Positions 6,160-32,168 are shown, counted from the stretch's first letter. The stretch is 40,068 nucleotides of DNA from a virus (IMGVR_UViG_3300000970_000004:1-40068); one strand, 5' to 3'. Made by a program: numbers and translations. Notes: generated by a model from the sequence alone, not told the origin.

Positions 6160-6175
6160 AAACCCTGAAAGGAAA
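6160..6175 (+). promoter_or_regulatory. Conserved leader/SD motif AAACCCTGAAAGGAAA (copy 1 of 3)
   Basis: Exact 16-mer also found at 18408..18423 and 32724..32739. It ends 5-6 nt before an ATG in every copy. Confidence 0.7.
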
Positions 6176-6180
6176 TGAAA

Positions 6181-7032
6181 ATGAGCGAACAAGCGAACGG
6201 CTGGTTTTACAAAGAGGCCGTAAAAAACGAACGTAAAAGCGCAGAAGAAAAGCGCGCTGTTTTTGATGAAGTCGTTATGGTTATGATTACCATTCCCGGC
6301 GACAATAAGAATAAATTTGTGGACATCGCCAATGATGAATACAAAGAGCGTTTCCCTGCTGCATGGAAACAATACGAAGCTTCAGAAGCCCAAGTTGGCG
6401 AAGGGACGCCGCTTGAAGAGTGGCCTTTAATGACAGTCGGACGCTGCAAAGAATTGAAGTCTTTGAACATTCATTCTGTCGAGCAGCTTGCGGAACTTCC
6501 TGACCAGTTTATTTCACGCCTTGGAATGGGCGGACGTGAACTTGTCGAGCAAGCCAAGGTTCGTGTCCTGTCGTCTGACAGTGACGCTGAAAAGCTGGCG
6601 CAGCAGGTCAAAGACCTAACAGCAGAAGTTGAAGCTCTGAAGAGTGACGGCGGCGGTTCTGAAGGCAGCACTGAAGCCGAAAAAGAAACAATCGCCATTC
6701 AAGAACGTCAGATTAAAAATCTTCAGGCGGACGTTGAAACTTTGACGGCTGAAAAATCTTCGCTGTCTGAAAGCAATCAGTCTCTTCAAAATCTATTTGA
6801 TGAAGAAAAGGCCAAAACTACAAAGCTTGAAGCTGACATTGAAGCGCTAACCACGCCGCAAGAAACGCCCAAAGCTGAAGACGCAGCCAAGGGCGACGGA
6901 GCCAAGGTTGACGCTAAGGCTGCTGAAGACGAAGAGAAATCCGCCCTGCGCGCTCAAATCAAGGAAAAGACTGGTTCTGCTGTGAAAGGCAACCCTTCCC
7001 TTGAAACTCTTCGCAAAATGGCAGCTGAATAG
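6181..7032 (+). CDS. Conserved phage protein with an acidic coiled-coil C-terminal half (283 aa)
   Basis: ATG 6181 gives the same 7-nt SD spacing as the other copies of the leader motif. The listed ATG 6175 lies only 1 nt from the SD. The C-terminal half is E/K/A-rich heptad-like sequence. Confidence 0.7.
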   Translation: MSEQANGWFYKEAVKNERKSAEEKRAVFDEVVMVMITIPGDNKNKFVDIANDEYKERFPAAWKQYEASEAQVGEGTPLEEWPLMTVGRCKELKSLNIHSVEQLAELPDQFISRLGMGGRELVEQAKVRVLSSDSDAEKLAQQVKDLTAEVEALKSDGGGSEGSTEAEKETIAIQERQIKNLQADVETLTAEKSSLSESNQSLQNLFDEEKAKTTKLEADIEALTTPQETPKAEDAAKGDGAKVDAKAAEDEEKSALRAQIKEKTGSAVKGNPSLETLRKMAAE

Positions 7033-7034
7033 CC

Positions 7035-7730
7035 ATGACCGTTCTAGCCGTCATTCAGCGAGTTTGCCCGAAAATAGGGCTTTCCATTCCAACAGCCGTG
7101 TTTGGTTCAACCGAGCGCGAACACATCGAACTTGCTGAAATGGCAAACGATGTGGCTGAAAAGATTGTTGAAGCCCATGACTGGCAAGCCTTGACGGTGG
7201 AACACACTATTCAGGGCAACGGGACGACTGAAGCGTTCGACTTTCCAGCGGATTATGACCGCATGATTTTAAACGGTGACGTTTGGAATAGTCGAACGAA
7301 CAACCCCGTTGACCCTCTTGACCTGAACACGTTTCTTAGCCGCGAAGTTCGCGGTTTTGACGTGTATTCAGCTTACGTCATTCGCGGCAATCAAATAATT
7401 ATCCGGCCAATTATGGGCGCGGATGAAACTTGCCGTTTTCACTATATCAAGAAAACGTGCATCACTGGCGTTGCTGACGGCACAAGCAATCACAATGAAT
7501 GCTTCACAAGCGACGACGACGTTTTCAATCTTCCTGACCGCCTTCTTCGCCTTGGAATGATTTGGCAGTGGCGGGAAAGCAAAGGCCTTCCTTACGCTGA
7601 AGACATGGAAAACTTCGAAATTGCGCTGGCGAAAGAAGTTCGTTCAGAGCGCGGTTCTAAGGTTCTTGTTATCGGCGGGAACAAGCTTCGCGGATATAAA
7701 ACCGCATACCCCCACGCGATTGTTTCCTAA
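7035..7730 (+). CDS. Putative head-tail adaptor / tail tubular protein A-like (231 aa)
   Basis: Size and position immediately upstream of a 517-aa protein match the short-tailed phage adaptor/nozzle gene pair. No diagnostic motif. Confidence 0.4.
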   Translation: MTVLAVIQRVCPKIGLSIPTAVFGSTEREHIELAEMANDVAEKIVEAHDWQALTVEHTIQGNGTTEAFDFPADYDRMILNGDVWNSRTNNPVDPLDLNTFLSREVRGFDVYSAYVIRGNQIIIRPIMGADETCRFHYIKKTCITGVADGTSNHNECFTSDDDVFNLPDRLLRLGMIWQWRESKGLPYAEDMENFEIALAKEVRSERGSKVLVIGGNKLRGYKTAYPHAIVS

Positions 7731-9283
7731 TGCGTAAGGCGCTGAACAGAAACAGGGCGGTTGCCCGGGACAAGACGTTTGACGCCCCTGTTCGCGGCTG
7801 GCTTCAATCTGTGAATAAGGGCAAGGTCACCCCTGAAACAGCAACCATTCTTGACAACTGGTTTCCTGAAATTGACGGCATTCGCGCCCGGTCAGGAACC
7901 GAAAGATTTGCGCGCATTCCAAATCGCGTTGAAAGCATGTTTTCTTATGAGGCTGGTTCGATTGAGCAGCTTTTTGCTGCTGACGAAAACAATATTTACA
8001 ACATCACTGCGCCTGCTGACGCTGAAACGAACGTGGCTGCGACTGTGACGGGTCAGACTAACGGCAAATATTCAACAGCGACAATGGCGACTTCTGGCGG
8101 CGTGTTTCTTACGGCTGTAAACGGCGCTGACACGCGCCAAGTATTTGACGGGACGAACTGGACAACGCCCGCAATAACTGGCGTTGACAGCGCCGATTTG
8201 TCGAATGTTTGGGCTTATAGAAACAGGCTCTTCTTTGCCGAAAAGGACAGCTTAAGCGCATGGTATTTGGGGACCGAAAGCATTTCCGGCGCTGCGCAGC
8301 AGATTTCGCTGGCGGGCGTCTTTGCCAAGGCTGGTTCAATTCTCTTTGGCGCTACATGGTCGCTTGATGCTGGCGACGGACTTGACGACTTATGTGTTTT
8401 CGTTTCGACAAATGGCGAAGTCGCGGTTTACCAAGGAAACAACCCTTCAGACGTGGACGCATGGGCGCTGCGAGGTGTTTACGACATTGGTCCTCCTCTT
8501 GGTCCTGACGCATATTACAGGGTTGGTGGCGACCTTCTAATTGCGACAGAAGACGGTTTAATCCCATTATCATCGGCAACTCAAAAGGACAGAACTACGC
8601 TGTCCTTAACCGCTTTAAGTTTCAATATAGAAAACGCATGGCGGAAAGAGGTCAGTAAGCGTCATTCATTTTGGAGAATTACGAAATGGCCTGAAAAGAA
8701 TATGGCCTTCGTCACGTTTTACGAGCAAAGCGGCTCCGTTGATTATCAGTTTGTTGTGAACACTAGAACGAACGCATGGACCCGCTTTACAGGTTGGGAT
8801 ATGCAAGCGCTGGCGCTGTTCAAAGACCAGATTTATTTCGGCACTGCTGAAGGTCGAATTATGTTTGCAGAGCGCGGCGGTGCTGACGACGGTCAGCCAT
8901 ATGTTGCAACTCTCGTTGGGGATTACGACCATTTGGGAGCCCCGGCGCGCACTAAAGTCGGACGTATGGCGCAAGGCGTTTTTATTTCCAGTTTGCCGTT
9001 CAAGCCTGAAATCGGAATTTCGACTGACTTCAAAGACCAGACAGGAATTTCACCTTCTATTGCAGCAAGCCCGGTTCAGTCAGATTGGGACGCTGGACTT
9101 TGGGACGCAGCGACATGGGACGGCGAAGAGGCTCAACAAATAACAACGAAATGGGTTTCAGCGTTCCGCTATGGTCAGTATATCGCGCCAATGGTTCAGG
9201 TCGCGTTTTCAGACACAGCGGAGCCAAAAGTGAAGCTTGTCGCTGTCAATCTTACTTATGAATATGGAGAGCGCGCGCAGTGA
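7730..9283 (+). CDS. Putative tail nozzle / tail tubular protein B-like (517 aa)
   Basis: TAATG coupling to the adaptor-like gene. The N-terminal LDNWFPEIDGIRARSG segment resembles podophage nozzle or stabilisation proteins (from memory). Confidence 0.45.
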   Translation: MRKALNRNRAVARDKTFDAPVRGWLQSVNKGKVTPETATILDNWFPEIDGIRARSGTERFARIPNRVESMFSYEAGSIEQLFAADENNIYNITAPADAETNVAATVTGQTNGKYSTATMATSGGVFLTAVNGADTRQVFDGTNWTTPAITGVDSADLSNVWAYRNRLFFAEKDSLSAWYLGTESISGAAQQISLAGVFAKAGSILFGATWSLDAGDGLDDLCVFVSTNGEVAVYQGNNPSDVDAWALRGVYDIGPPLGPDAYYRVGGDLLIATEDGLIPLSSATQKDRTTLSLTALSFNIENAWRKEVSKRHSFWRITKWPEKNMAFVTFYEQSGSVDYQFVVNTRTNAWTRFTGWDMQALALFKDQIYFGTAEGRIMFAERGGADDGQPYVATLVGDYDHLGAPARTKVGRMAQGVFISSLPFKPEIGISTDFKDQTGISPSIAASPVQSDWDAGLWDAATWDGEEAQQITTKWVSAFRYGQYIAPMVQVAFSDTAEPKVKLVAVNLTYEYGERAQ

Positions 9284-9723
9284 AGCTTCTTTATGGACAT
9301 GACCAAGCTGTTGCTGAATTTGTTTCAGCCGTCGTTCCTCGCTGCGAAAATGGATTTGGCCCCTGCAAAGCAATCGGCGTCGTTGATAAATCAGGCCTTC
9401 TTGTTGGCGGAATGGTTTATTCAGGTTGGGACGTTCACGCCAAGACAATCGAAATGAGCGGAGCGGCAATAAGCAAGCGCTGGCTGACACGCGAAACACT
9501 GAAGGGATTGTTTTCGTATCCCTTTGACGTTATCGGCGTTCAAATGGTTGTAATGCGCAACTCTGAAAACCAGACCGCGCTTCATAGGATGCTTCGTGCA
9601 TATGACTTCAAAGAGTTCGTTATTCCGCGACTTTTTGGACGTGAAGAGGCTGGTCACATTTGGACGCTGACGCAAGAAGACTGGCAGAACAATAAATTTA
9701 TGAAAGGTCGTAAAAATGTCTAA
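9280..9723 (+). CDS. GNAT-fold (RimJ/RimL-like) acetyltransferase-like protein (147 aa)
   Basis: GTGA overlap start. The C-terminal pattern YPFDVIGVQMVVMRNSENQTALHRMLRAYDFKEFVIPR...LTQEDW matches the Acetyltransf_3-type tail. No canonical Q/RxxGxG loop was seen. Confidence 0.45.
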   Translation: MKLLYGHDQAVAEFVSAVVPRCENGFGPCKAIGVVDKSGLLVGGMVYSGWDVHAKTIEMSGAAISKRWLTRETLKGLFSYPFDVIGVQMVVMRNSENQTALHRMLRAYDFKEFVIPRLFGREEAGHIWTLTQEDWQNNKFMKGRKNV

Positions 9724-12181
9724 GCCTAAAGCTCCAACACCGCCAGACCCGCAAGAGACAGCGGCGGCGCAAACAGGAACCAATGTTGCGACAGCTATCG
9801 CAAATGCAACCCTGAACCAATATGACAGCTATGGCCCTGACGGTTCGACAACTTATAGCCAGACAGGAACCACGTCATTTCGCGACCCTACGACTGGTCA
9901 GACGTATCAAATCCCGCGTTACTCCGTTACGCAAACTCTGTCAGATGGTCAGCAGCAAATCTATGACCAGAACGAAGCGGCGGGGCAAAACCTTTCTGGC
10001 ATTGCGCAAGACCAGTCAGCCTTTCTGCGTGACTATCTTGCTGAACCTATTTCGTTTGACGGATTGCCCGGACGCGGCCAGTTGAACGATAATTCAGGAC
10101 AAATTCAGACAGGCTATAACCAGCAAAGCCTTCAAAATATTCAGTCAGGCGGACCCGAATTTAACGCAGTCAATGGCAGTGCTGGACTTCGTTTGACAGG
10201 GCGAAGACAGCCAAGGCTTCAGAATGGCTATGCGGCTTCAGGCATTGCTGACAGCACAAACTTTCAGGGTCAGAATGGCGACGCGAACCTTCGCCAGAAT
10301 ACAGGCTTCCAGCCTAATTATCAGAGCGGATATGACACGACGGGGCTGGAAGGTTTCACTGGAAACACGCCGCAACTTCAGCGTCAGGGCGGTTCTGCTG
10401 ACCTAAATACTGATTTGGGGACAGCCGCCCTTCGCGATTTCAGCGACATTCGGCCAGAGTTTCAACGCCAAAATCAAAGCGCAGGGCTGAACACTGAATT
10501 AAGCCGCGAAGGTGTTACGCTTCAGGACTTTGCTGGAAACACGCCTGAATATCAGCAGAGCTATGTTGACGACTTCAGCGCCGACAGAAGTCGTGTCGAA
10601 GATGCCCTAATGCAAGACCTTGACCGCCAACATTCGCGTGATGAAGAAAGCTTAAACGCGCGGCTGGCTGACCAAGGCATTCAGCTTGGCTCTGAAGCAT
10701 ATTCCCGGGCTCAAGAAGACTTTCAGGCAGGAAAGGACCGTTCACGCTTGGGCGCTATATTGAACGCAGGGCAAGAGCAGTCCCGCTTGGCTGGACTATC
10801 GCAGCAGCAGGCCGCTTTTGGCAATCAGGCGCGCAGTCAGGGCTTTAACGACGACCTTACGCGCCAAGACTTCAACAACAACGCGGCACAGCAAAGATTT
10901 GGGCAGAACGTCACTGCTGGACAGTTTGGAAATCAAGCCAGACAGCAAGACTTTCAGAACTCGCAAAGCGCCATTGGTCAAAACAATCAATATTTGCAAA
11001 GCGAGTATGACAACGCCAGAAGTCAGACCGCGTTCAACAATGATGTTTCCGGGCAGCGCTTCAGTCAGAATGCGCAGGCTGGTCAATTTGAGAACGCAGC
11101 GCGTCAGCAAGACTTTGAAAACAGCCAAGGCATTGTTCGTGAAAATAACCAATATTCGCAGCAAGATTTCGGCAATCAATTACAGGCTGGAAGCTTCAAC
11201 AATCAAGCTGCGCAGGGCAATAATGCCATTAACGCGCAGTTGGCGCAGTTCGGAAATCAGGCGCAAGGTCAGCAGTTTGCCGACAGCCTGAACGCTGCGC
11301 AGTTCTTTAATCAGGCTGGTCAGCAGCAATATCAGAACAGCTTCCAAAACCGGGCGTTCAACAATGATTTGCAGCAACAGCAGTTCCAAAACCAACAGCA
11401 GATTGCGGGCTTCAACAATGACCTGTCGTCAAATCAGGCGCAGTTCTTTAATGCTGCAAACCAGCAAGGCTATCAAAACCAGAACCAAGCTGACCTTCAG
11501 AACAATCAAGTTCGCCAAAGCTCTTTTGATAATTTCAACAACGCGACTGCGCAAAACAATCAGTATTCGCAGCAGGCCTATGACAATTATGTCAATCAGA
11601 CTGGCTTGAACAACGCGACGACGCAGCAAAACAACCAGAACGCAGCGGCGCAGGCTGGCTTCAACAATCAGGCTACGCAGCAGCAATTCAACCAAGGCCT
11701 GACGGCTGCGAATTATCAAAACGACCAGCGAGAACGCGCACTGCAAGAGCTTCTTACGCAGCGGAACCAGCCGCTTAATGAGATTTCAGCACTTATGTCG
11801 GGCTCACAAGTCAGTCGTCCGCAACAATATCAAACGCCGCAAAGCAACATTGCGACGACGGATTATGCAGGGCTTGTTCAGAATAATTACGCGAACCAAA
11901 TGCAGCAATATCAGCAGAGCATGGCGCAGCGTAACCAGTTGTTAGGCGGTGTTTTTGGTCTTGGCAGCACGTTAATCGCTTCAGATAGTCGCCTAAAAGA
12001 CATCATTCGTCCGCTGGCGAAGCTGAAGAATGGCTTGACGATTTACTTGTTTAATTACATTGGTGAAAATATTGAGCGCGTCGGGTTAATGGCGCAAGAG
12101 GTTGCAAAGCTCAAACCTGAAGCAATCGTTCACATGGATAACGGATTTATGGCCGTTGATTATGGAAGGGCTTCAGCATAA
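9716..12181 (+). CDS. Q/N-rich repeat fibre-like protein with a C-terminal S74 intramolecular chaperone domain (821 aa)
   Basis: The C-terminus SDSRLKDIIRP...YLFNY...VGLMAQEVAKLKPEAIV...VDYG (nt 11981..12178) matches the Peptidase_S74 signature. Nucleotides about 10817..11727 encode an aromatic residue every 9 positions in a Q/N background. Confidence 0.75.
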   Translation: MSKPKAPTPPDPQETAAAQTGTNVATAIANATLNQYDSYGPDGSTTYSQTGTTSFRDPTTGQTYQIPRYSVTQTLSDGQQQIYDQNEAAGQNLSGIAQDQSAFLRDYLAEPISFDGLPGRGQLNDNSGQIQTGYNQQSLQNIQSGGPEFNAVNGSAGLRLTGRRQPRLQNGYAASGIADSTNFQGQNGDANLRQNTGFQPNYQSGYDTTGLEGFTGNTPQLQRQGGSADLNTDLGTAALRDFSDIRPEFQRQNQSAGLNTELSREGVTLQDFAGNTPEYQQSYVDDFSADRSRVEDALMQDLDRQHSRDEESLNARLADQGIQLGSEAYSRAQEDFQAGKDRSRLGAILNAGQEQSRLAGLSQQQAAFGNQARSQGFNDDLTRQDFNNNAAQQRFGQNVTAGQFGNQARQQDFQNSQSAIGQNNQYLQSEYDNARSQTAFNNDVSGQRFSQNAQAGQFENAARQQDFENSQGIVRENNQYSQQDFGNQLQAGSFNNQAAQGNNAINAQLAQFGNQAQGQQFADSLNAAQFFNQAGQQQYQNSFQNRAFNNDLQQQQFQNQQQIAGFNNDLSSNQAQFFNAANQQGYQNQNQADLQNNQVRQSSFDNFNNATAQNNQYSQQAYDNYVNQTGLNNATTQQNNQNAAAQAGFNNQATQQQFNQGLTAANYQNDQRERALQELLTQRNQPLNEISALMSGSQVSRPQQYQTPQSNIATTDYAGLVQNNYANQMQQYQQSMAQRNQLLGGVFGLGSTLIASDSRLKDIIRPLAKLKNGLTIYLFNYIGENIERVGLMAQEVAKLKPEAIVHMDNGFMAVDYGRASA

Positions 12182-13413
12182 TGGCTTATCAAGGTTACGG
12201 TTCAGTTTCAAAGCAAGCAGAGCGTCAAAGAGCCTTGGCGCAACAGTTGATGCCCCAAAATATCGGCGCGCCTGTCGCTGGCATTGGCGGCGGATTAACG
12301 CAACTAGCTCAAGCCCTAATGTCCCGGAAGGCGAATAAAAAAGCCGATAAGCTTGAAGAGGCTCACCGGGTGAAAATGGCGGCTGCGCTTCAGAGCGCGA
12401 CGGCTGGAATGTCACCTGACCAGCAAGCTTTCGCCCAAGCTTTCCCTGAACTGTTTGCGAAGTCGCAGGCTGCAAATATGTTCCCGGACGCCATGAAACA
12501 GAAGCAAATGGCGCAGCAGCAATCAAACGCTGACCGTCAGTTTGGTCTTCAGACACGCAGCGCTGACCGCGCTGACCGCGCTTTTGATTATCAAATGAAC
12601 CGGGACATCGCTGGCGACAAAATCAGGGCTGAACAGCGCCAATATCAGCAAGGCCGTGACGCTCAAAACGACCAATTCAGAAACAATCAGTTCGCCTATC
12701 AGCAAGGACAGGACCGCATTTCAAATCAGCAGCGGAACCGTCAGATTGACGCCACGATTGCGAAAGCTAGCAAGACTGACCTTGGCAAAACCCCAATTTA
12801 CCTTCGCGGACAAGACGGAAAAGTCAGCATTGGACAGCTTGGAAATGGTCAAGTTGTTCCTGCAAAAATTGCGGACGGAATGTCAATCGTTGACCCTATG
12901 CAAAAAGCCATGATGCAACAACAAGGACGCTCTGAAGGGAAAACACGCGGCGAAACAGCAGCCAACATGCCAGCTATCTTAAACAATGCTCAAAGGTCAC
13001 TAAAAACAGTTGAAGACTTAATAAATCACAAGGGCATTGATGCGGGAACGGGTTTAAGTAGCGTAGTTCCGGCGCTTCCCGGCACTGACAAAAAGGCCTT
13101 TAATGTCGCAAATAAACAGCTTGGCGGTCAGGTGTTCTTGCAGGGATTTGAAGCCCTGAAGGGCGGCGGTGTTATCACTGAAATTGAAGGTCAGCAGGCA
13201 AAAGATGCTTTAGCCCGCGCAGATAAATCGCAGAGCAAGGAAGACTATATTGCAGCCCTGAACGATTATAAGGATATTGTTTCTGGTGGAATGGCTGCTG
13301 CTTACATGAAGGCAGGAATGGAACTTCCTGAAAACCTGAAGCCATACGCAATGAACATTCAGCAGGGCGGTCAGACGTTCGTTTATAATCCGCAAACAGG
13401 GGGTTTTGACTAA
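12181..13413 (+). CDS. Internal-virion/ejection-like protein, Q-rich (410 aa)
   Basis: TAATG coupling and position between fibre and tail genes. Q/R/D-rich central region. No motif recognised. Confidence 0.6.
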   Translation: MAYQGYGSVSKQAERQRALAQQLMPQNIGAPVAGIGGGLTQLAQALMSRKANKKADKLEEAHRVKMAAALQSATAGMSPDQQAFAQAFPELFAKSQAANMFPDAMKQKQMAQQQSNADRQFGLQTRSADRADRAFDYQMNRDIAGDKIRAEQRQYQQGRDAQNDQFRNNQFAYQQGQDRISNQQRNRQIDATIAKASKTDLGKTPIYLRGQDGKVSIGQLGNGQVVPAKIADGMSIVDPMQKAMMQQQGRSEGKTRGETAANMPAILNNAQRSLKTVEDLINHKGIDAGTGLSSVVPALPGTDKKAFNVANKQLGGQVFLQGFEALKGGGVITEIEGQQAKDALARADKSQSKEDYIAALNDYKDIVSGGMAAAYMKAGMELPENLKPYAMNIQQGGQTFVYNPQTGGFD

Positions 13414-15368
13414 TGACAATCACAGTCAAAGGGCCAGACGGCAACACCTATCAATTCCCGGACGGAACGCCGCCAGAAGTAATGCAAAGCGCCATGCAAA
13501 AACGTTACGGCGGTCCGCAAAATCAACAACCACAACAGCCGCCGCAAATGCAGGCGGCTTCGCCCATTCAGGGCGGCGCTAGTCTTGGCGATAGGGTTGG
13601 CGCGCTTTTGGGCGGTGGTCTTAAGGGTGCGACTTTGGGCGCTTCAGACCATGTTGAAGCTGCACTGTCTTCGTTAATTCCTGCTGACAGAATGGTTGCG
13701 CCTGACGGCTCTGCTGACATTAGGTTTGGGAAATACAAGCACAATCTTGAACAGGTTCGACGGCGCAATGAAAAGCAAAAAGATGGGGCTCCAAAAACTT
13801 ACACAGGCGGACAAATTGGCGGCGCGGTTCTAGGCCTTGGAAAACTATCATCGGCAAAAGCCTTGCCTTCTAGCTATGTAAAAGGAACGGGTCTTGGAAA
13901 AACGACGCTTGGCCTTGGTGCGGACGGTGCTGCGATTGCCGGGACGGAAGCCCTTCTGAATGGGCGTGACGCTGTAAAGGCTGCTGGTGAAGGCGGCTTG
14001 ATAGGTGCGGGCCTGAACGTCCTTACACGCGGCGCAATTCGCGGTTCTTCGCCAGTTGTTCAAAATATAAAAGCGCGCCTAAATCCTGAAAAAATGGCAA
14101 CCAATATGCTTGTGAACGCGCTGAAGAAAAGCGGACAATCTGTTGATGACATAAAGAGCAAATTAAACAGCGCCAAGGACGACGGCGTTGGCGAATTTAC
14201 CATTGCAGATGCGCTAGGCGAACAGGGTGTGCGCTTGGCAAGCGGCTTGACCCGCCAGCATGGTCAAGGCGGTCAGCGCCTTGCCGACTTCCTCAACCAG
14301 CGCCAGTCTGGTCAATCTGGTCGCATTACAAACGCACTGGACGACAGCTTTAAAACTGGCGGCAAAACGGCTGAAGATGCGACAAATGAAATTTCAAAGA
14401 CAATCCGTCAGACAGACAAAGCCAATTTTGGCAAAGTTCCTGACGAAGCGGTTCAGCCAACTTCAGCTATGGCTTTCATTGAGAAGAATACGCAGGCCGT
14501 GAAGGACGGAATTAAGCCAACCAAAATTGAAAAAAAGCTGGCGGAATATAGCGACCTAATCAAATCTGGCGGCGAAGGCGTTGGCGCGCAGCGCCTTATT
14601 TCCATTCGTCAGGATTTAGCCGACGCAGCAGACAAGGCATTTCGCGGCGGCAAGGGTGGCCTAGGAACGAAACTTAAGGATTTGCGTTCTGCGATTGATG
14701 AAGACATTCTTCGCGTTTCGCCAGCTTATAGAGATGCGAACGCCGCAAGTTCTGCTTTGCGAGGTGTTCGCGGAAATATTAAATCAGGTCAGCAGGCCGC
14801 AACAAGAGGACGTCACGAAGACATTGCGGCGGCGCTTCGCGGCACTTCCCCTGAAGGAAAAAAGGCTTTTGCGACTGGCTTTGCTGACACAAATATTGCG
14901 CGGACACAGAAGGCCGCTGAAGGCTCAAACGCAGCGCGACCATTCACTAATCAGCGCTTCCAAGCTCTTGCGTCTGAATTGAATGAAGACGGCGGGGAAA
15001 AGCTTTTGCGTCAGATTAGTCGTGAAAACGATATGTTTATGACAAGAGCGCGGGCGACTGGCGGCTCAAAAACGGCTGATAATCTTGCAGACCAAGCGAA
15101 CGTCAATCCCGCTGTCGGCCTTGGTGTTCAATTATTTCGCGGCGACCTCCCCGGCGCTGCTGGTTACATTATTCGCGGCGCTGCAAATCGGGTCACTGGC
15201 AACAATCAGAACTCGCGCGACGCGCTTGCAGATATGCTTCTAAGTAATTCAGATGATGTTTTAGCCAAAGAGACTGCTCGCCGCATAAGAAGCGGGGAAA
15301 GGCTGACTGAAGCTGAACGAAAGGCGTTGGTTCCTCTTTTGGCAGCTTCTACTTCAGGAAGTCAGTAA
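13413..15368 (+). CDS. Large internal-virion/ejection-like protein (651 aa)
   Basis: TAATG coupling. G/A-rich segments and an N-terminal VKGPDGNTYQFPDGTPPEVMQSAMQKRYG motif. Function inferred only from position. Confidence 0.55.
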   Translation: MTITVKGPDGNTYQFPDGTPPEVMQSAMQKRYGGPQNQQPQQPPQMQAASPIQGGASLGDRVGALLGGGLKGATLGASDHVEAALSSLIPADRMVAPDGSADIRFGKYKHNLEQVRRRNEKQKDGAPKTYTGGQIGGAVLGLGKLSSAKALPSSYVKGTGLGKTTLGLGADGAAIAGTEALLNGRDAVKAAGEGGLIGAGLNVLTRGAIRGSSPVVQNIKARLNPEKMATNMLVNALKKSGQSVDDIKSKLNSAKDDGVGEFTIADALGEQGVRLASGLTRQHGQGGQRLADFLNQRQSGQSGRITNALDDSFKTGGKTAEDATNEISKTIRQTDKANFGKVPDEAVQPTSAMAFIEKNTQAVKDGIKPTKIEKKLAEYSDLIKSGGEGVGAQRLISIRQDLADAADKAFRGGKGGLGTKLKDLRSAIDEDILRVSPAYRDANAASSALRGVRGNIKSGQQAATRGRHEDIAAALRGTSPEGKKAFATGFADTNIARTQKAAEGSNAARPFTNQRFQALASELNEDGGEKLLRQISRENDMFMTRARATGGSKTADNLADQANVNPAVGLGVQLFRGDLPGAAGYIIRGAANRVTGNNQNSRDALADMLLSNSDDVLAKETARRIRSGERLTEAERKALVPLLAASTSGSQ

Positions 15369-15496: not shown

Positions 15497-17566
15497 ATGC
15501 CACGTAATACGCAAAATGTTTATCAAGCGCCCCCCGGCACTTATGGCGTTTCAGGGCAAACGATTTCGTCCGTTAAATACAATGCTTTCGTTGACGATGT
15601 TGTTGCTGACCTGAACGCTGCGCGACCCATAAGCGCGGGCGGAACTGGCGCGACGAACATCGCAGCGGCGCGAACAAATCTTTCAGTTCCGTCAATCGCT
15701 GACCTTGATGCGCTTTCAAACACAGTCACAGGCCTTGGCAATACGAAGCTTAATCTTTCGGGCGGAACGCTGACAGGTGCGCTTACAGGCACGACAGCGA
15801 CCTTCACAGGCGGCGTTACAGCTAATTTGACAGGAAATGTTACGGGCAATGTTACGGGCAATTTGACAGGTGACGTTACGGGTGACGTGACAGGCAACGC
15901 AGGCACAGCCACAACACTTGCAGCGACGCGAACATTCGGAATGACAGGCGTTGTGACGGCCACAGCGCAGAACTTTAACGGTTCAGGAAACGTCACGTTC
16001 ACAACGACAATCGCGAACAATGCCCTTTCGATTGCGAAGACTTCAGGGCTACAAGCAGCTCTTGATGATAAGTTGAACGCAAGCAATTACACCGCGAACG
16101 ACGTTTTAGCTAAACTTTTGACTGTTGACGGCTCAAGCTCTGGCCTTGATGCACAGTTTCTTAGCGGAAAGCCTTTGTCTAATTTCATTACCAAGGACGG
16201 CGCAGCAACGACTGGAACGGACTTCGACAACCACACTTCAACTGATATTGTTACCCTCAACAACGGTTCAGCAAACCAGCCCCAAGGCGGCTTCAATCAC
16301 ACCCTGTTCGTTATTGGTGGAATAAACGCGAATAATTTAATTCAGCTTGATTTTCCGCGCGGCTCGACGGAAGCTTATTTTCGTTCAAGAAGCGGGTCTA
16401 TTTGGTCAAGCTGGTCGCGGTTTTGGAACAACAATAACCACGGTGCGGGAAGTGGCCTTGACGCTGATTTGCTGGACGGCCTTCAGGGTTCAGCCTACGC
16501 TAAAGTAACTGGCGGTTTAGGCCTAAGAGTGGAAAACACAAACCCGACTTTAATTCTACGCGATACGGACGGGACAGGAAACAATCACACTGGATGGGTT
16601 GGGTTTTATGACAGCGCCGACGCGCAACAAGCGTGGATTGGCTTTGGTTCGACAGGCAATGACAACCTCAACCTTCAAAATAATTATGCGGGCGGATTAT
16701 TAACCTATAACAGCCAATTAATTTATCACGCTGGCAACTTTGACCCTTCCACGAAGGCGGAAGCCTCACACACTCACAGCATTGCGAATGTGGTTGGGCT
16801 TCAGTCTACGCTTGACGCAAAGCTAAACTTATCAGGCGGAAATATTACTGGAAGCTTGAGCGTGTCACAAGCAGAGCCTTCAATTCAGCTCATAGAAACA
16901 GACCAAGGGACAAGCACAAACCAAAGCCGCTTTGTCATGTCAGGCGGCGACTTCTTCATTCAGTCTGAAGGCCCGATTAGGTTCACAGGGTTTTTAGGAA
17001 CCGACCTTACAGCGCTGACCGCAAGATTTGGAGGCGTCAATCGTGAAATTTACCACAGCGGCAACATTGGAGGCGTAGCAAACAGCACGTTCAGCATAGC
17101 TAAAACTTCAGGACTTCAGACTGCGCTTGACGGAAAACTTGACGACTTCACGACGGGAAGCTTGGCTTTTTCAACTGCCAGCGGTGACACATTACTTCAA
17201 TCTAACAGTAATGGCTTCATTCGTATTGGCCCGCAAAATGCAAGCTTCTGTCATATCTACACTGACTTACCAAGCTTCTTCATGGACAAGCCTCTTCTTA
17301 TTCAGGGAAGCACAGTTTATCACAGCGGCAACATTGGAAACGTCGCAAATAACGTCTTCAGCATTGCTAAAACTTCAGGCCTGCAAACTGCATTGAATGG
17401 AAAGGCTGCGACTTCGCACACGCATTCAATTTCAAACGTGACAGGTCTTCAGGCGGCACTAGATGCCAAAGAGCCAGCGCTTGCCGCTGACCAGAAGCGC
17501 AAAACAACCATATCGTCAGCCGCCCCTTCAGGTGGTTCAGACGGCGACATTTGGCTTCAATACTAA
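15497..17566 (+). CDS. Tail fibre protein (689 aa)
   Basis: Five copies of a tail-fibre repeat signature, for example SHTHSISNVTGLQAALDAK and FSIAKTSGLQTALDGKL. Also a (T-G-N/D-V/L) tetrapeptide run and an SD (TAGGAG) upstream. Confidence 0.85.
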   Translation: MPRNTQNVYQAPPGTYGVSGQTISSVKYNAFVDDVVADLNAARPISAGGTGATNIAAARTNLSVPSIADLDALSNTVTGLGNTKLNLSGGTLTGALTGTTATFTGGVTANLTGNVTGNVTGNLTGDVTGDVTGNAGTATTLAATRTFGMTGVVTATAQNFNGSGNVTFTTTIANNALSIAKTSGLQAALDDKLNASNYTANDVLAKLLTVDGSSSGLDAQFLSGKPLSNFITKDGAATTGTDFDNHTSTDIVTLNNGSANQPQGGFNHTLFVIGGINANNLIQLDFPRGSTEAYFRSRSGSIWSSWSRFWNNNNHGAGSGLDADLLDGLQGSAYAKVTGGLGLRVENTNPTLILRDTDGTGNNHTGWVGFYDSADAQQAWIGFGSTGNDNLNLQNNYAGGLLTYNSQLIYHAGNFDPSTKAEASHTHSIANVVGLQSTLDAKLNLSGGNITGSLSVSQAEPSIQLIETDQGTSTNQSRFVMSGGDFFIQSEGPIRFTGFLGTDLTALTARFGGVNREIYHSGNIGGVANSTFSIAKTSGLQTALDGKLDDFTTGSLAFSTASGDTLLQSNSNGFIRIGPQNASFCHIYTDLPSFFMDKPLLIQGSTVYHSGNIGNVANNVFSIAKTSGLQTALNGKAATSHTHSISNVTGLQAALDAKEPALAADQKRKTTISSAAPSGGSDGDIWLQY
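15824..15895 (+). repeat. Six tandem 12-nt units encoding (N/D)(L/V)TG inside the tail fibre gene
   Basis: aatttgacagga aatgttacgggc aatgttacgggc aatttgacaggt gacgttacgggt gacgtgacaggc, in frame. Confidence 0.9.
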
Positions 17567-22308: not shown

Positions 22309-22692
22309 TTAAGGGTGAAGAAACTGGACCAAATCAGGCTTGAAATAATCTGGCCCCTTCAGAATTTTCCCATCACCGCGAAGAATTGGCTTCCCGTCCC
22401 GGTCAAGCTTCGACATGTTTGAACGATGGACTTCAGCAAAAGCTTCGTCTTTGATGTCACCCATTCCAAGCTTCAAATAGAGCCCGTCCAAAATGTATTG
22501 CATGTCCGAAAGGGCGTCCAAAGCTTCAACCAAATCACCCGCATTGAACGCTTCATTAAATTCGTCCAATTCCTCTTGCATAAGATTTGCCTGAAGCGGA
22601 ATTGTGTCTTCGTCCAGCGTTGGCTTTCCGGGAAGTGGAAGGTTGAAGGCCTTGTTCCACTCCCTAACCTGTTCGATTGTTGTCGGAGCCAT
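22309..22692 (-). CDS. MazG-like nucleoside triphosphate pyrophosphohydrolase (127 aa)
   Basis: LMQEELDEFNEA...DLVEALDALSDMQYILDG...EVHRSNMSKLDRDGKPILRGDGKILKGPDYFKPDL matches the all-alpha NTP-PPase pattern. Confidence 0.8.
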   Translation of the reverse strand: MAPTTIEQVREWNKAFNLPLPGKPTLDEDTIPLQANLMQEELDEFNEAFNAGDLVEALDALSDMQYILDGLYLKLGMGDIKDEAFAEVHRSNMSKLDRDGKPILRGDGKILKGPDYFKPDLVQFLHP

Positions 22693-23132
22693 TATGCCCC
22701 GCTTTCGTCGTTCAGCGGGTCGTCGCCAGCCGCTATTGACCGAGTTAATTCAAGAAGCTGTCGGCGGACGCGCTTTGACTTTATGCCTGAAATGGCCTTG
22801 GCTTGCGCTACGCCGTCAGTGCTGTTGATAAAGTCATAAACGGCGGCTGTGTCGCCTTCAGGCGAAACTTCCGTTCCTTGACCGTCTAAGCCCTGAAAAA
22901 AGAAGCCAACTGGCACGTCCATGACTTGCGACATTTTGAAGAGCCGGGATGCGCCGACACGGTTCGCGCCACGCTCATATTTTTGCACTTGCTGGAATGT
23001 AACGCCCAACTGGTCGCCAAGCTTTTCTTGGCTCATTTTCAGACGAATGCGCGTTCCAACATGCACGTCAATCGGATTTGGCGACCTTGGAGCGTGTTTG
23101 CTCTTAGTCTTGGGTAGTGTTGCTGTTGTCAT
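22692..23132 (-). CDS. XRE-family HTH regulator of the alphaproteobacterial PhrR/PraR-like type (146 aa)
   Basis: NPIDVHVGTRIRL..MSQEKLGDQLGVTFQQVQKYERGANRVGASRLFKMSQVMDVPVGFFF, plus a conserved C-terminal VYDFI...VRRQLLEL segment. Confidence 0.85.
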   Translation of the reverse strand: MTTATLPKTKSKHAPRSPNPIDVHVGTRIRLKMSQEKLGDQLGVTFQQVQKYERGANRVGASRLFKMSQVMDVPVGFFFQGLDGQGTEVSPEGDTAAVYDFINSTDGVAQAKAISGIKSKRVRRQLLELTRSIAAGDDPLNDESGA

Positions 23133-25725: not shown

Positions 25726-25997
25726 TTTTCTTTCCTTTTTACTTCGCCGTTTGCTTCGTAAGTAGTGACAGTTTTAATTGTCATTTTCACAGGCTGAATT
25801 GTTGAATGCCTGCACTTCACATTCCAATCTGAATGCGTAGTCTTGTAAAATTCACCGCCTGACGTTTTCCAAATTAAAACGACATAATTTCCGCCGCTTT
25901 CAGGTATTGAAACGCGGCTTTGAACGGTTGCGTCATTTAATTCTTCAAACCATTCTGAAAGGTGTTTTTCATCCCAATTCATTCTTCTAACTGCCAC
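25722..25997 (-). CDS. Hypothetical protein (91 aa)
   Basis: ORF overlapping both neighbours, between the exonuclease and the ATPase. Confidence 0.6.
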   Translation of the reverse strand: MAVRRMNWDEKHLSEWFEELNDATVQSRVSIPESGGNYVVLIWKTSGGEFYKTTHSDWNVKCRHSTIQPVKMTIKTVTTYEANGEVKRKEK

Positions 25998-27103
25998 GGT
26001 TTGAAATCGCTATCGTCAAACGCTTTCGGGTTTAGCGGTGGAAGCCAGCGCTTATTCAGGCCGTTGTTTTCCATATACCAATGATAAAGTTTTGTTGCTC
26101 TTTGAACGCGCAAATGTCCCGTTCTATACATCGAAGTTATTTTGCGATTGTCGTCATATTTTGGAAGCTCACGAAGCAAGGCGTGATTGTATTTGCCGCG
26201 CTGCTGAATAAGGAACCAATATTGATGTGAACCTGAAGCAAAGCTTTCAAGCCATTCGTCGCTTGGCATATCGTCCTTTTCGCCGTGAAAGCCAACCGCA
26301 AAATTGGTGTTTTCAAGTCCGTCTTTTAACATAAGACGCGCGACATTGACGCCCTCTTGATAGAGAAACGCGCCAGTCAAATATCCGTGGTCATGGATTT
26401 GCCCCGCCGCAGCTTCGTCAAGAACCTTGCTGAATTTATTGGCAATGGTCTTATATTCAATCTGAATGTCCGGGCGAAGATAGTCGATGCGAATTTTGTA
26501 TTTCACGCCGTCTTTAGTAAATAGAATTGAGACTTCAGGGAAACCGCCGAATAAGTGTGTTTCGTGAAGGCCATATTGTTTGATTATTTCACCCGCCCGT
26601 TTTATCTCTTCAATCTGTTTTTCAGTAAGCAAATATTTACCTTCGTTCGAAGCCTCATAATTTGCTTTAACTTCGTCGTAAAACAGCACGTCAGCGCCAG
26701 CGTCTTTCAACCTCGCCTTAAGAACGGGCATTGTTCCTTTTTCCTTAATGCCGCGCGTTTCGCAGGCCTTAACATAATCGTCTTTCATTTTTAGAAGAGT
26801 TACGCCGTGATGTGTTTCCCATTCTTCTTGAACGAAATTGTGAGCGTTGCGCGACCAAAAAACCGCTTCACCTTCAAGAGCAATATCATGCCACGCGCGA
26901 CCTTCAGCTAACGCTTCTGTCAGGTCTTCAATGACAGCTTCAGCGTCATAATCAGGCAACAATGTTGGCGCTATAACATCTTCATAATAGACCAGTGAGC
27001 CTTTATTCAGCTTGCTTATGGCCGTTGTTGAAAGGCGGTCTTGCGCCGCATACTGCTTGAATGGCAATCCAAAATAAATGCCGTCTGGTAGCTGTTCAGT
27101 CAT
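25979..27103 (-). CDS. PD-(D/E)xK exonuclease (RecE/exonuclease VIII-like) (374 aa)
   Basis: N-terminal DGIYFGLPFKQYAAQDRLSTTAISKL and a core KIRIDYLRPDIQIEYKT (D...ExK). Confidence 0.7.
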   Translation of the reverse strand: MTEQLPDGIYFGLPFKQYAAQDRLSTTAISKLNKGSLVYYEDVIAPTLLPDYDAEAVIEDLTEALAEGRAWHDIALEGEAVFWSRNAHNFVQEEWETHHGVTLLKMKDDYVKACETRGIKEKGTMPVLKARLKDAGADVLFYDEVKANYEASNEGKYLLTEKQIEEIKRAGEIIKQYGLHETHLFGGFPEVSILFTKDGVKYKIRIDYLRPDIQIEYKTIANKFSKVLDEAAAGQIHDHGYLTGAFLYQEGVNVARLMLKDGLENTNFAVGFHGEKDDMPSDEWLESFASGSHQYWFLIQQRGKYNHALLRELPKYDDNRKITSMYRTGHLRVQRATKLYHWYMENNGLNKRWLPPLNPKAFDDSDFKPWQLEE

Positions 27104-29460: not shown

Positions 29461-30411
29461 ATGAGAGATTACACAAAAATATCAACTTCGATTTGGAATA
29501 GTCGTAAGTTCACCAAGCTTTCAAGCATGGGCAAGCTGCTTTATCTCTATTTTCTGACCTGTCCGAACGTCAATTCTATTGGCTGCTTTGTTATCAAAGA
29601 AGGCTACGTTAAGGCGGACTTGGATTGGAACGGTAAGGAATACGAAAAGACTTTGAAAGAGCTTTCGGACCGTGAACTTGTCCGAACATTCGCTGAAGAA
29701 AACCTTGTCAGAATTATCAATTTTCTTGATTTTGAACAGTTCTCAAATCCGAAACATGCAGCCGGGGCGCTCAAAATTGCACTTAATTTGCCTGATTGTG
29801 TCGAAAAACACCATCTTTTCCAAAATATCAAAGCGACGGCTGACTTCCTCAAAAAAGCCAGTAATTACGATGAATTTGATAGGGTATCGGATAGCCTATC
29901 GAAACAATATCGAAACACAGAGACAGAGACAGAACCCGAGACAGATACCGAACCCCCTACTGACGTAGGGGCTGGCGCTGACGCTTCGCCCGCTAAGAAA
30001 AAGAAGCGAAAAACGGCTTGGCGGGATGGTTGGCGACCTAACCCGTTAAGCCAACATATGAACGACAAGCTCCAATTATCACAAGAAGAACTGAAACATG
30101 AATTCCAAAAATTTGAACAAAACTGTAAAGCGCATAACAGACAATATGTCGATTGGGATGCAGCGTGGCGAAACTGGCTCCAAAGTGATTATGGGACATA
30201 CGGACGCCGGATTGCAGGCCAAAGCGGTCAAGGTGTTGGTGGCTCAAGCTCCAGCAGAAACGGACCGCAAGCTTCGGGGTATGGTGGGTCGTTCCAGCGT
30301 GAACTTGACAAGGGAAAATCACAAAGCGCGGTTGAAAGCTATATCGACGTCACGCCAAGCCCTGACGACGCTGACGGAACACTTCGCCTTGTCTTTGACG
30401 AAGACCCCTGA
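29461..30411 (+). CDS. Replication initiator / replisome-organiser-like protein (316 aa)
   Basis: N-terminal YTKISTSIWNSRKFTKLSSMGKLLYLYFLTCPNVNSIG is typical of phage replication-organiser N-domains. It also has an acidic TETETEPETDTEP linker and a C-terminal W-rich segment (DWDAAWRNWLQ). Confidence 0.5.
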   Translation: MRDYTKISTSIWNSRKFTKLSSMGKLLYLYFLTCPNVNSIGCFVIKEGYVKADLDWNGKEYEKTLKELSDRELVRTFAEENLVRIINFLDFEQFSNPKHAAGALKIALNLPDCVEKHHLFQNIKATADFLKKASNYDEFDRVSDSLSKQYRNTETETEPETDTEPPTDVGAGADASPAKKKKRKTAWRDGWRPNPLSQHMNDKLQLSQEELKHEFQKFEQNCKAHNRQYVDWDAAWRNWLQSDYGTYGRRIAGQSGQGVGGSSSSRNGPQASGYGGSFQRELDKGKSQSAVESYIDVTPSPDDADGTLRLVFDEDP

Positions 30412-31072: not shown

Positions 31073-31392
31073 TGACCTATAGCGAAACAACACAGCGACC
31101 AAAGAAGGCCCGGAAAGAGCATGTTTGCGACGAATGCAAGACGACTATCGCCAAAGGAACGGTTTACATTGGCAACAGCAGCGTCATTGACGGCAAATAT
31201 GAGCCCATGCGACGCCATATGGACTGCATCGCCGCCGCTGACCTATTGGACGCTGAATGCACTGTGAGCGGAACTTATAGCCGCTTTCTGCTGACTGTCC
31301 TGATTGCGAAAAACCCGGACATAAAACCCAAATTAAAAGCTCTGCTGGTTGACTTCCCTGAAGTGTTGGCGCGGCTGAATGCAGCATTATGA
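31069..31392 (+). CDS. Cys-containing hypothetical protein (107 aa)
   Basis: ATGA overlaps at both ends. Contains CDEC...HMDC. Confidence 0.6.
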   Translation: MMTYSETTQRPKKARKEHVCDECKTTIAKGTVYIGNSSVIDGKYEPMRRHMDCIAAADLLDAECTVSGTYSRFLLTVLIAKNPDIKPKLKALLVDFPEVLARLNAAL

Positions 31393-32168
31393 ATAAATTA
31401 TCTTTACTTGATTTGTTTTCAGGAATTGGAGGCTTCAGCGTTGGTTTTGAGGCAACAGGTGGATTTGAGACAGTCGCATTTTGCGAAATTGAAGAGTTTC
31501 CGCGAAAGATATTAAATAAACACTGGCCTAACACGCCAATTTACAAAGACGTAAGGGAACTAAACCGTGAAAAACTTATTGCCGATGGAATTGCCAAAAT
31601 CGACGCGCTCACAGGCGGCTTCCCCTGCCAAGACATCAGCCTTGCTGGAAAGCAGGCGGGAATTAACAGCGAAACAAGAAGCGGGCTTTGGTCAGAATGC
31701 GTTCGTCTTGTTGGCGAATTACGACCCAAAATCGCAGTCTTTGAGAACGTCTCAAACTTGCTTTCTGGCCCTAGCGAACAACGAGGGAGGTGGTTTAGCC
31801 GAATACTCTGCGATTTGGCCGAGGTCGGGTATGATGCAGAATGGCACTGTCTGCCAGCTTCCTTCATTGGTGCATGGCATAAACGGGACAGAGTTTGGAT
31901 TATTGCCTACCCCAACAAAGTCAGAATGGAAGGGCGCGCCTCGACACCGATACTACGGCAGCGACACTTACAAATCGAACTTGTGCGAAGCTTTGAGGCT
32001 TGGCCCGGAAGACCCAATTTACCCACACCCGTCTTTTCTCGAACGCATGATGGGGTTCAAGATAGGGTGGACAGAACTATGAGCCTTGGAAACGCAATCG
32101 TTCCAAGCATTGCGGAGATTATAGGACACGCAATTTTAGAAGAATTCAGCGGAATAATCCGCGAATAA
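31389..32168 (+). CDS. DNA (cytosine-5)-methyltransferase (259 aa)
   Basis: Ordered motifs: DLFSGIGG (I), GGFPCQDIS (IV, 31614..31640), ENV (VI, 31743..31751), GYDAEW, HKRDRVWIIA (VIII) and LGNAIVP (X, 32085..32105). Confidence 0.9.
   Translation: MNKLSLLDLFSGIGGFSVGFEATGGFETVAFCEIEEFPRKILNKHWPNTPIYKDVRELNREKLIADGIAKIDALTGGFPCQDISLAGKQAGINSETRSGLWSECVRLVGELRPKIAVFENVSNLLSGPSEQRGRWFSRILCDLAEVGYDAEWHCLPASFIGAWHKRDRVWIIAYPNKVRMEGRASTPILRQRHLQIELVRSFEAWPGRPNLPTPVFSRTHDGVQDRVDRTMSLGNAIVPSIAEIIGHAILEEFSGIIRE
31567..32082 (+). other. 171-codon +1-frame ORF embedded in the methyltransferase gene, carrying methyltransferase-like C-terminal motifs
   Basis: Open from GTG 31567 to TGA 32080..32082, with an internal ATG ATG at 31831. 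It reads SLRTSQ, WPRSGMMQNG, GLLPTPTKSEWKG and FLERMMGFKIGWTEL. See findings. Confidence 0.35.

Follow-up and report, generated by a model that had tools for sequence, protein, structure and literature searches.

Few components of short-tailed phages are as poorly understood as their ejection proteins. In P22, whose genes run in the order gp4, gp10, gp26, gp14, gp7, gp20, gp16, the tail of gp7 sits in the outer membrane, within a 12-mer channel leading from the hub to the membrane, and gp7* and gp20 touch through Asn/Gln hydrogen bonds (2026 preprint); proteins of the class that includes P22 gp7 and T7 gp14 are held to be small and nearly constant in size (review). Peptidase_S74 domains are known as trimerisation chaperones that follow the triple beta-helix of a fibre or spike (PMC3742443). 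We describe here an open reading frame (ORF), 9716..12181 on the plus strand of the viral DNA IMGVR_UViG_3300000970_000004, which encodes a protein of 821 amino acids (aa) belonging to the PHROG 6121-type family, a family that breaks the size rule of the gp14/gp7 class. The window is the entire 40,068-nt stretch of this DNA, and residue numbers refer to the 821-aa protein unless another protein is named. We think it reasonably probable that the protein is the first structural protein of the ejection operon, a counterpart of the gp7/gp14 class (internal virion protein B, IVP-B) with an expandable helical shaft and an optional S74 cap; it is most likely not a receptor-binding tail fibre.

The family and its S74 domain are already known from databases, and the IVPB label from one paper (PMC10386132). 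We found no description of i) an 18-residue helical repeat class whose length is quantised in whole helical turns; ii) expansion of the family to 821 aa and beyond; or iii) a match in position between the S74 cleavage site and the natural ends of homologs that lack S74.

Gene order and relatives

The order of genes in the window is adaptor, hub, GNAT-like IVP-A, ORF 9716..12181, gp20-like protein, 651-aa protein, and tail fibre (Table 1), and the same order recurs around the homologs in Brucella Tb, Rhizobium RHph_N2, P0001, and P0088. The GNAT-like gene is IVP-A, a homolog of P22 gene 14 (Hardies et al. 2023, PMC10386132), and because a gp14-like gene lies upstream and a gp20-like gene downstream, ORF 9716..12181 stands in the slot of P22 gene 7. 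An earlier note on this DNA, made from the sequence alone, had called the position odd for a receptor-binding fibre; it is indeed odd, because the gene belongs to an operon of internal virion (ejection) proteins.

A Megablast search of the gene against 50,697 phage records gave no match, so its relatives are detectable only at the protein level. The known ones, Brucella Tb/Pr gp23, Rhizobium RHph_N2 gp012, and the Sulfitobacter pCB2047/phiGT1 proteins (PHROG 6121), are about 330 aa long and resemble the window protein in N-terminal domain, helical blocks, hydrophobic tail, S74 domain, and synteny; they match only its two ends, being essentially without the repeat array described below and without the insert at residues 131-290, and the window protein is some 490 residues longer. 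The family takes in the diagnostic Brucella phages and many rhizobial prophages. The smallest members seen here have about 330 aa, the window protein 821 aa, and P0155 869 aa, with arrays of about 0 to more than 30 nonads. The growth of these proteins comes largely from strictly phased 18-residue units of predicted helix.

The link to gp7 rests on synteny, on architecture, on a published label, and on one chimeric relative. The label was given to phiGT1 gp17, a family member (tblastn coverage 99%, E=3e-30) tabulated as "IVPB/gene7" (Hardies et al., PMC10386132); the spectral counts per kDa reported for phiGT1 are 1.3 for gp17, 0.67 for the 12-copy portal, and 0.15 for the 6-copy hub (PMC10386132), an abundance which is hard to square with a 3-copy needle or a few fibres. 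The chimera comes from Pseudoalteromonas phage H6/1, which has P22-like coat, gp4, gp10, and gp14 genes and encodes its gp17 after the gp14-like gene. Residues 11-165 of H6/1 gp17 match the gp7 profile PHROG 598 (E=3.7e-16) and residues 221-357, including S74, match PHROG 6121 (E=1.2e-20), so that a body of gp7 profile carries the same S74 cap. Its C-terminal module is homologous to that of the window protein, with an S74 domain (41% identical between the two) placed after the Gly/Ala-rich tail of an ejection-operon protein, but its body is of the gp7 type (PHROG 598) rather than the PHROG 6121 type and has no 18-residue array. H6/1 gp17 is annotated "putative ejection protein; pfam13884", and PHROG 4287, "DNA ejection protein", matches Brucella Tb gp23 over residues 83-327.

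Compared directly with P22 gp7 (PF25688, PHROG 598) and T7 gp14, the window gene likewise lies between gp14-like/IVP-A and gp20-like genes; its product shares with them a Q/N-rich helical body, a Gly-rich hydrophobic C-terminus (here after the predicted removal of S74), and, judging by its homolog phiGT1 gp17, abundance in the virion. It differs in having no detectable sequence homology to either protein, in its size (821 aa versus about 200-240 aa), in having one short hydrophobic segment rather than 2-5, and in possessing the 18-residue shaft, the disordered insert, and S74, all three absent from gp7 and gp14.

An array of 18-residue units

Residues 368-671 form an array in which Gln and Asn make up 44% of the composition and Lys, Pro, Cys, Trp, and His are all lacking. 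The earlier note had reported more than 25 in-phase 9-residue repeats, and we count 34 in-phase nonads with the consensus F-N-N-Q-A-x-Q-Q-x, in which position 1 is F/Y/W in 27 of 34 (background 11%; binomial p=8e-20), position 3 is Asn in 28 of 34 (background 19%; p=2e-15), and position 5 is A/L/V/I in 22 of 34 (p=1e-8), so that the enrichment at these positions is far above chance. Phe or Tyr recurs at residues 368, 377, and so on to 566, at spacings of 9 or of 13+5/18 residues which hold the phase, as the note had said; a single step of 11 residues follows (566 to 577), after which the array is again in phase up to residue 667. The nucleotide positions given in the note (10817 for residue 368, about 11727 for residue 671, and 11981 for Ser756) are right.

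The true repeat unit is 18 residues, not 9. Self-identity of the array is highest at offsets of 54, 18, 72, and 36 (0.28-0.33) and falls to 0.22 at offsets of 9 and 27, and odd and even nonads differ in that Gln occupies position 8 in 9/12 versus 1/11, and Asn position 3 in 12/12 versus 6/11. The duplication that the note had put at about 60 residues measures 54 aa (residues 404-457 versus 458-511; identity 44% for amino acids and 52% for nucleotides), and the close relative P0001 lacks exactly 54 aa at the site. A family profile compiled from 463 units in 84 distinct homolog arrays has the pattern F-x-N-x-A-Q-x-Q-x-[FY]-x-Q-x-l-a-x-a-q, with F1 in 63%, N3 in 99%, A5 in 75%, Q6 in 68%, Q8 in 96%, F/Y10 in 87%, and Q12 in 60%.

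Tandem Repeats Finder detected no tandem repeat in the gene at the DNA level; the array must therefore be old and diverged, and recent slippage is ruled out as the origin of its periodicity. When the array alone was searched against 1.84 billion cluster representatives, only 44 proteins were found, most of them in the PHROG 6121-type family and some with 30-32 in-phase units; the array is thus rare and mostly restricted to the family. It has no Pfam match, no PDB sequence match, and no structural neighbour, which agrees with the suggestion of the note that it belongs to no described class of fibre repeat. Long arrays of the same type, with up to 32 in-phase aromatic units, also occur in P0123 (936 aa), P0135 (1268 aa), P0132, and P0133; the N- and C-termini of these proteins are different, and the array is therefore not strictly tied to one architecture.

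Length steps and predicted fold

We measured the distance between two conserved anchors flanking the array, GQEQSR and RNQPxNE, in 100 homologs. It equals 86+18n in 90 of them, the main values being 86, 104, 122, 140, 158, 176, 194, 212, and 230. Nine exceptions, among them the window protein, have distances of 129, 133, 136 (two homologs), 147, 219, 241, 277, and 331, and are off the series by 7, 11, or 14; a tenth, at 78, lies 8 residues short of the series (10 above 68) and does not fit. Offsets of 9 or 27 from the series were not seen among the 100 homologs. Steps of 18, 7, 11, and 14 residues correspond to 5, 2, 3, and about 4 turns of alpha-helix. Array indels among the four closest relatives are of 54, 65 (=54+11), and 45+18+27=90 aa.

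AlphaFold2, run with a 77-sequence alignment, predicts for the window protein helices at residues 327-435, 446-527, and 574-694, with a predicted local distance difference test (pLDDT) score of 55-80 in the array; for P0046, a 534-aa homolog from a Sinorhizobium prophage, it predicts helices at residues 228-322 and 329-406. On an 18/5 helical wheel the conserved residues make two unlike seams, centred at 2 and 180 degrees and composed of F1/A5/Q8/Q12/A15 and N3/Q6/[FY]10/L14/A17, respectively. Because the seams are not equivalent, an insertion of 9 residues would swap both of them downstream, and hence only steps of 18 survive. We conclude from the models together with the length steps that the array is best predicted as an alpha-helical shaft, not a beta-solenoid. 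The trimeric beta-helical or solenoid fibre of the earlier note thus finds no support: AlphaFold2 gives helix in two proteins, the array contains no proline, its length changes in steps of 18, and the steps of 9 or 27 that a beta-solenoid or a triple beta-helix would allow are not seen.

By computation, the helical region at residues 327-694 would measure about 55 nm at full extension and about 28 nm if folded into a hairpin; the corresponding region is far shorter in the homologs of about 330 aa. We set aside a hairpin fold-back as a feature of the family, since the break falls midway between the anchors in the P0046 model and elsewhere in the window model, and may be an artefact of modelling monomers.

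The S74 domain and the tail before it

The C-terminal S74 autoprocessing domain with its Ser motif, recognised by eye in the earlier note, is supported by a significant Pfam match (PF13884, Peptidase_S74; residues 756-803 against profile positions 1-56, E=1.6e-5, 25.5 bits versus a cut-off of 22). The Ser/Lys dyad that defines S74 (PMC3742443) is present as S-x4-K, S756-D-S-R-L-K761, with conservation of S756, D757, and K761 reaching 90% or more in the 77-sequence alignment, and the domain is modelled with pLDDT of about 94. In K1F endosialidase, the T5 L-shaped fibre, and the MYRF ICA domain, Peptidase_S74 with its SDxxxK dyad is likewise C-terminal on an elongated protein. In K1F endosialidase and the T5 fibre, however, it follows a triple beta-helix, whereas in the window protein it follows a Gly-rich tail and is dispensable in close homologs. 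No triple beta-helix stalk precedes S74 here, AlphaFold2 placing a helix at residues 717-750 followed by the Gly-rich tail (in a monomer model that is weak in this respect), and neither Pfam nor AlphaFold2 reveals a receptor-binding or enzymatic domain before S74.

What does precede the domain is a tail (residues 742-755) which becomes C-terminal only once S74 is removed; within it, residues 742-754 are more hydrophobic than any other 13-mer in the 821-aa protein. In members that bear S74, the cleavage Ser lies 70-78 aa (mode 74) beyond the RNQPxNE anchor. The anchor is retained in 13 members without S74, and of these 12 end 69-81 aa beyond it and one at 90 aa. Since these end-points match the position of the Ser, self-cleavage would recreate the natural C-terminus of the S74-less members. 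The latter close with a hydrophobic stretch rich in Gly, as in ...SLLGGLLGLGSGALMGGYI (several of this kind) or ...GGFLGGLANLAPFLF, and P22 gp7 ends in ...AAIGGGIGLLGSLF, a tail of the same kind. One S74-less member, P0088, is a complete gene in the equivalent slot. S74 is thus, as judged from the sequences, optional in the family and not a defining part of the protein.

S74, usually read as a marker of tail fibres, also occurs on ejection-operon proteins, directly after a hydrophobic tail, and its optional presence there warns against the annotation "tail fiber domain-containing protein", the name that NCBI gives to the prophage homologs. Making a membrane-active protein in the cytoplasm poses a problem, and the arrangement of tail and domain suggests that S74 is the answer to it. 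On L007, from the phage whose family member lacks S74, a separate 365-aa gene (12476-13573) downstream of the ejection operon carries Peptidase_S74, so that the module appears to sit on different virion genes in related phages. S74-like C-termini are also found in two other podophage records, MW202675.1 (10016-10216; H98) and OK041467.1 (10462-10665; H99), in proteins annotated "internal virion protein D" and "putative chaperone of endosialidase"; these two records suggest that S74 may be more widespread on ejection-operon proteins.

Proposed role

We wish to stress that several elements of the role we favour, namely ejection, membrane insertion, cleavage, the oligomeric state, and the role of length, are what we infer from the observations above. 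In outline, S74 would trimerise the precursor and mask or organise its hydrophobic tail during assembly; after folding it would cleave itself off before Ser756, leaving a gp7-like C-terminus, ...LLGGVFGLGSTLIA; the mature protein would be packaged in the head and be the first expelled at infection; its hydrophobic tail would enter the outer membrane, and the shaft would form or extend the first stretch of the conduit leading from the tail hub. A shaft that changes by whole helical turns only would keep both seams in register with the conserved flanks, and seams about 180 degrees apart probably let many helices or hairpins pack laterally into a sheet or barrel, as in the channels that P22 gp7* and gp20 form; the gp20-like protein may take part in this packing. 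The length of the shaft would then set the reach of the conduit.

A more specific and more daring version, which we hold to be rather unlikely as a whole, makes the 18-residue units a length-adjustable helical conduit, for example of 12 helices or hairpins joined through their two N/Q/aromatic seams, and makes S74 a fibre-derived safety cap gated by trimerisation. Such a conduit would be the first segment of the DNA channel, and its reach might be adjusted, in steps of 18 residues (2.7 nm of helix), to how thick the surface layers of the host are; the cap would keep the tail that enters the membrane inactive up to assembly and would then cut itself away. Opposite seams would suit a many-helix barrel such as the 12-helix periplasmic barrel of P22 gp20 or the 36-helix gp7*/gp20 outer-membrane domain, although this is an analogy only. 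If true, conduit and cap would amount to a new job for S74 and a new repeat class among ejection proteins, and the series of sizes in the family is in any case a natural set for asking what fixes the length of a conduit.

Several observations weigh against our assignment to the gp7/gp14 class. No signal was found by hhalign between the family and the P22 gp7 sequence (probability <1%), nor against a 121-sequence gp7 alignment after S74 and the array were trimmed (<1%), the latter a weak negative given the shallow gp7 profile (Neff 1.5), and neither PF25688 nor phrog_598 matches the window protein. Canonical gp14/gp7-like proteins are 181-240 aa long, vary in size by less than 30%, and have 2-5 predicted membrane helices (review), as against 821 aa and a single hydrophobic stretch of about 14 residues here. 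A trimerising S74 is not obviously compatible with the 12-mer gp7* channel. The operons of Brucella Tb and H6/1 contain an extra small gene (138 and 172 aa, respectively), and these could be the true IVP-B. Finally, the spectral counts come from another phage, phiGT1, and the AlphaFold2 models are of monomers, with predicted template modelling scores of 0.29-0.30 and pLDDT of only 55-80 in the array.

The extra small genes bear also on a different proposal, in which the protein serves as tail needle or central plug, analogous to P22 gp26, SU10 gp18, and Pa223 gp58. It would then be a rod of three chains that closes the hub channel with its N-terminus, and S74 cleavage would bare a distal tip able to touch or pierce the outer membrane. 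In favour of this are the small genes, which could be the real IVP-B; the model of the protein as a long helical rod with a hydrophobic tip; S74, which implies a trimer; the sealing of P22-lineage hubs by a trimeric needle encoded beside the hub gene; and the window itself, in which no gp26 homolog was found and no gene lies between hub and IVP-A. We nevertheless consider a needle improbable, because the gene comes after IVP-A rather than directly after the hub; hhalign finds no homology to gp26 (probability 0.1%); S74-less homologs occupy the same slot; phiGT1 gp17 far exceeds both the 12-copy portal and the 6-copy hub in abundance per kDa; the body of H6/1 gp17 matches the gp7 profile; two equally conserved opposite seams misfit a simple three-helix coiled coil; and the window phage, phiGT1, and RHph_N2 would be left with only two ejection proteins. 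Another internal virion protein outside the conduit, core- or scaffold-like or DNA-organising, with the array as spacer or self-associating module, would account for the abundance of the homolog in virions, for an array that varies from about 0 to more than 30 nonads, for its prion-like composition, and for a weak likeness of the N-terminal domain to HU/IHF. That likeness is non-significant (E of about 0.05-1), however; quantisation in helical phase and invariant Asn and Gln argue for a packed structure rather than a spacer, and action at a membrane is indicated both by the hydrophobic tail, which is conserved, and by the chimera with gp7, so that we give this explanation little weight.

A receptor-binding tail fibre, as the earlier note would have it, is a trimeric beta-helix or solenoid of nonapeptides chaperoned by S74. 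This has in its favour that S74 is typical of tail fibres and spikes, where it chaperones triple beta-helices, that NCBI names the prophage homologs after a tail fibre domain, and that F1, N3, and A5 alternate as they would on one face of a beta-strand. We think it very improbable all the same: AlphaFold2 predicts helix in two proteins, lengths change by 18, 7, or 11 and never by 9 or 27, S74 is preceded only by a hydrophobic tail without a receptor-binding domain, S74 is optional in the family, and the gene lies in the ejection operon of a genome with a separate fibre gene at 15497-17566. A trimeric fibre could instead be an alpha/beta coiled coil, as nonads in trimeric coiled coils can form (PMC4786415), with one beta-layer and roughly 1.7 turns of helix in every 9-residue unit. 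Points in its favour are the period of exactly 9, the frequency of beta-layers among phage fibres, the trimer suggested by S74, and the agreement of a hydrophobic residue at 1, N3, and A5 with a, c, and beta2 of the known nonads IENKADKAD and IANMATKDD; the nonads of Thermosinus Tcar0761 and Actinobacillus OMP100 also resemble the array in repeating every 9 residues and in having a hydrophobic first, an Asn third, and a small fifth residue. In the register a-b-c-beta1-beta2-beta3-e-f-g, a is hydrophobic in 82% and beta2 is A/V/L/I in 65% of units. Most of the rules for beta-layers fail, however (beta1 hydrophobic or Lys in 21%, e=K/R in 3%, beta3=D/N/T/S in 44%, g=D/E/Q in 41%), and, unlike Tcar0761 and OMP100, the window array has an 18-residue unit and no single-nonad indels. 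Moreover, a unit of 18 with non-equivalent halves and steps of 18 are not predicted by the alpha/beta coiled coil, which should allow steps of a single nonad that are never seen, and the S74-less members would be without a known trimeriser; we therefore regard it as decidedly unlikely.

Organisation of the gene and its surroundings

ORF 9716..12181 shares 8 nt with the upstream gene and adjoins the start codon of the downstream one. Its N-terminus, MSKPKAPTPPDP, fits the family consensus MGKPxAPxPPDP, and the start codon is therefore right. Features of the gene and its neighbours are collected in Table 1.

Table 1. Coordinates of the gene, the parts of its protein, and the neighbouring genes in the window.
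Feature	Position	Strand	Basis or remark
Adaptor (SU10_adaptor)	7035-7730	+	Pfam/PHROG; synteny with Brucella Tb, RHph_N2
Tail hub/nozzle	7730-9283	+	phrog_5107; synteny with Brucella Tb, RHph_N2
GNAT-like IVP-A gene, P22 gene 14/T7 gp13 counterpart, head of ejection operon	9280..9723	+	phrog_4470
Whole gene, PHROG 6121 family member, IVP-B/gp7 slot	9716..12181	+	phrog_6121 at 360 bits; 477 homologs
Conserved N-terminal domain, aa 1-125: KAPxPPDPxETAAAQT motif, helix, long beta-hairpin, helices	9716..10090	+	Conservation, AlphaFold2
Variable G/Q/N/T-rich insert, aa 131-290, ~30-aa units, predicted disordered	10106..10585	+	pLDDT <50 (AlphaFold2)
Conserved helical block, aa 291-367	10586..10816	+	Conservation; AlphaFold2 helices 287-319 and 327 onwards, pLDDT 80-93
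Q/N/aromatic array, aa 368-671, 34 nonads or ~17 eighteen-residue units, predicted alpha-helical	10817..11728	+	
Conserved C-proximal block, aa 672-741	11729..11938	+	Holds downstream anchor RNQPLNEISALMSG, aa 683-696
Gly-rich hydrophobic tail LLGGVFGLGSTLIA, aa 742-755	11939..11980	+	Predicted mature C-terminus after S74 release
Peptidase_S74/intramolecular chaperone auto-processing domain, aa 756-821, Ser756 and Lys761	11981..12178	+	
gp20-like protein, 410 aa, ejection-protein candidate	12181-13413	+	phrog_2534 (P22 gp20 PHROG), E=1.1e-13
651-aa ejection-protein candidate	13413-15368	+	phrog_5880
Separate tail fibre gene	15497-17566		PTR and tail-fibre PHROG matches

Many positions of the N-terminal domain are at least 90% conserved in the 77-sequence alignment (pLDDT 80-88), and the domain is common to the short homologs Brucella Tb gp23, RHph_N2 gp012, and phiGT1 gp17. 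A likeness of its helix and beta-ribbon (residues 12-95) to HU/IHF (Foldseek E of about 0.05, root mean square deviation of about 12 A) was gone with a second model and is probably meaningless. Foldseek comparison of both AlphaFold2 models with the PDB gave no hit at E<=0.001, and the sole match in a PDB sequence search was spurious (a sperm protein, E=0.85). The insert, which is missing from the short homologs, is a second and distinct repeat region with units of about 30 aa like GxAxL...F.G..P.[YF]Q; it shows a clean 30-aa indel relative to P0001 and larger deletions in P0002 and P0003. The upstream anchor GQEQSR (residues 352-357) lies within the helical block that leads into the array.

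Among the neighbours, the 517-aa protein of 7730-9283 matches a PHROG labelled "amidase / lysis" (phrog_5107), while by synteny it is the hub/nozzle (tubeB), so that its PHROG/RefSeq name looks misleading. Residues ~84-173 of the gp20-like protein are Q/N/R-rich, with aromatic spacings that include 9, 18, and 11 and recall the adjoining array, a resemblance which may hint at co-assembly of the two. Just upstream of the adaptor, 6175-7032 encodes a 285-aa coiled-coil protein (DUF7491-like, phrog_20268) that has a conserved counterpart in Brucella Tb gp19 and could itself be a needle or a head fibre instead.

With genes for the large terminase (34535-35926) and portal (35923-38280) at its end and head genes at its start, the window has the appearance of an almost entire podophage genome, circularly permuted and about 40 kb in size. 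ORFs 12-887 and 887-2326 have no PHROG match; the latter (479 aa) has no Pfam match either and is apparently conserved on the P0001 contig. No tRNAs were found in the window. The early region encodes a repressor-like regulator (22692-23132), an exonuclease VIII-like protein (25979-27103), a DnaD-like loader (29461-30411), and a DNA methyltransferase (31389-32168), and the GC content falls to 0.43 at 28-30 kb.

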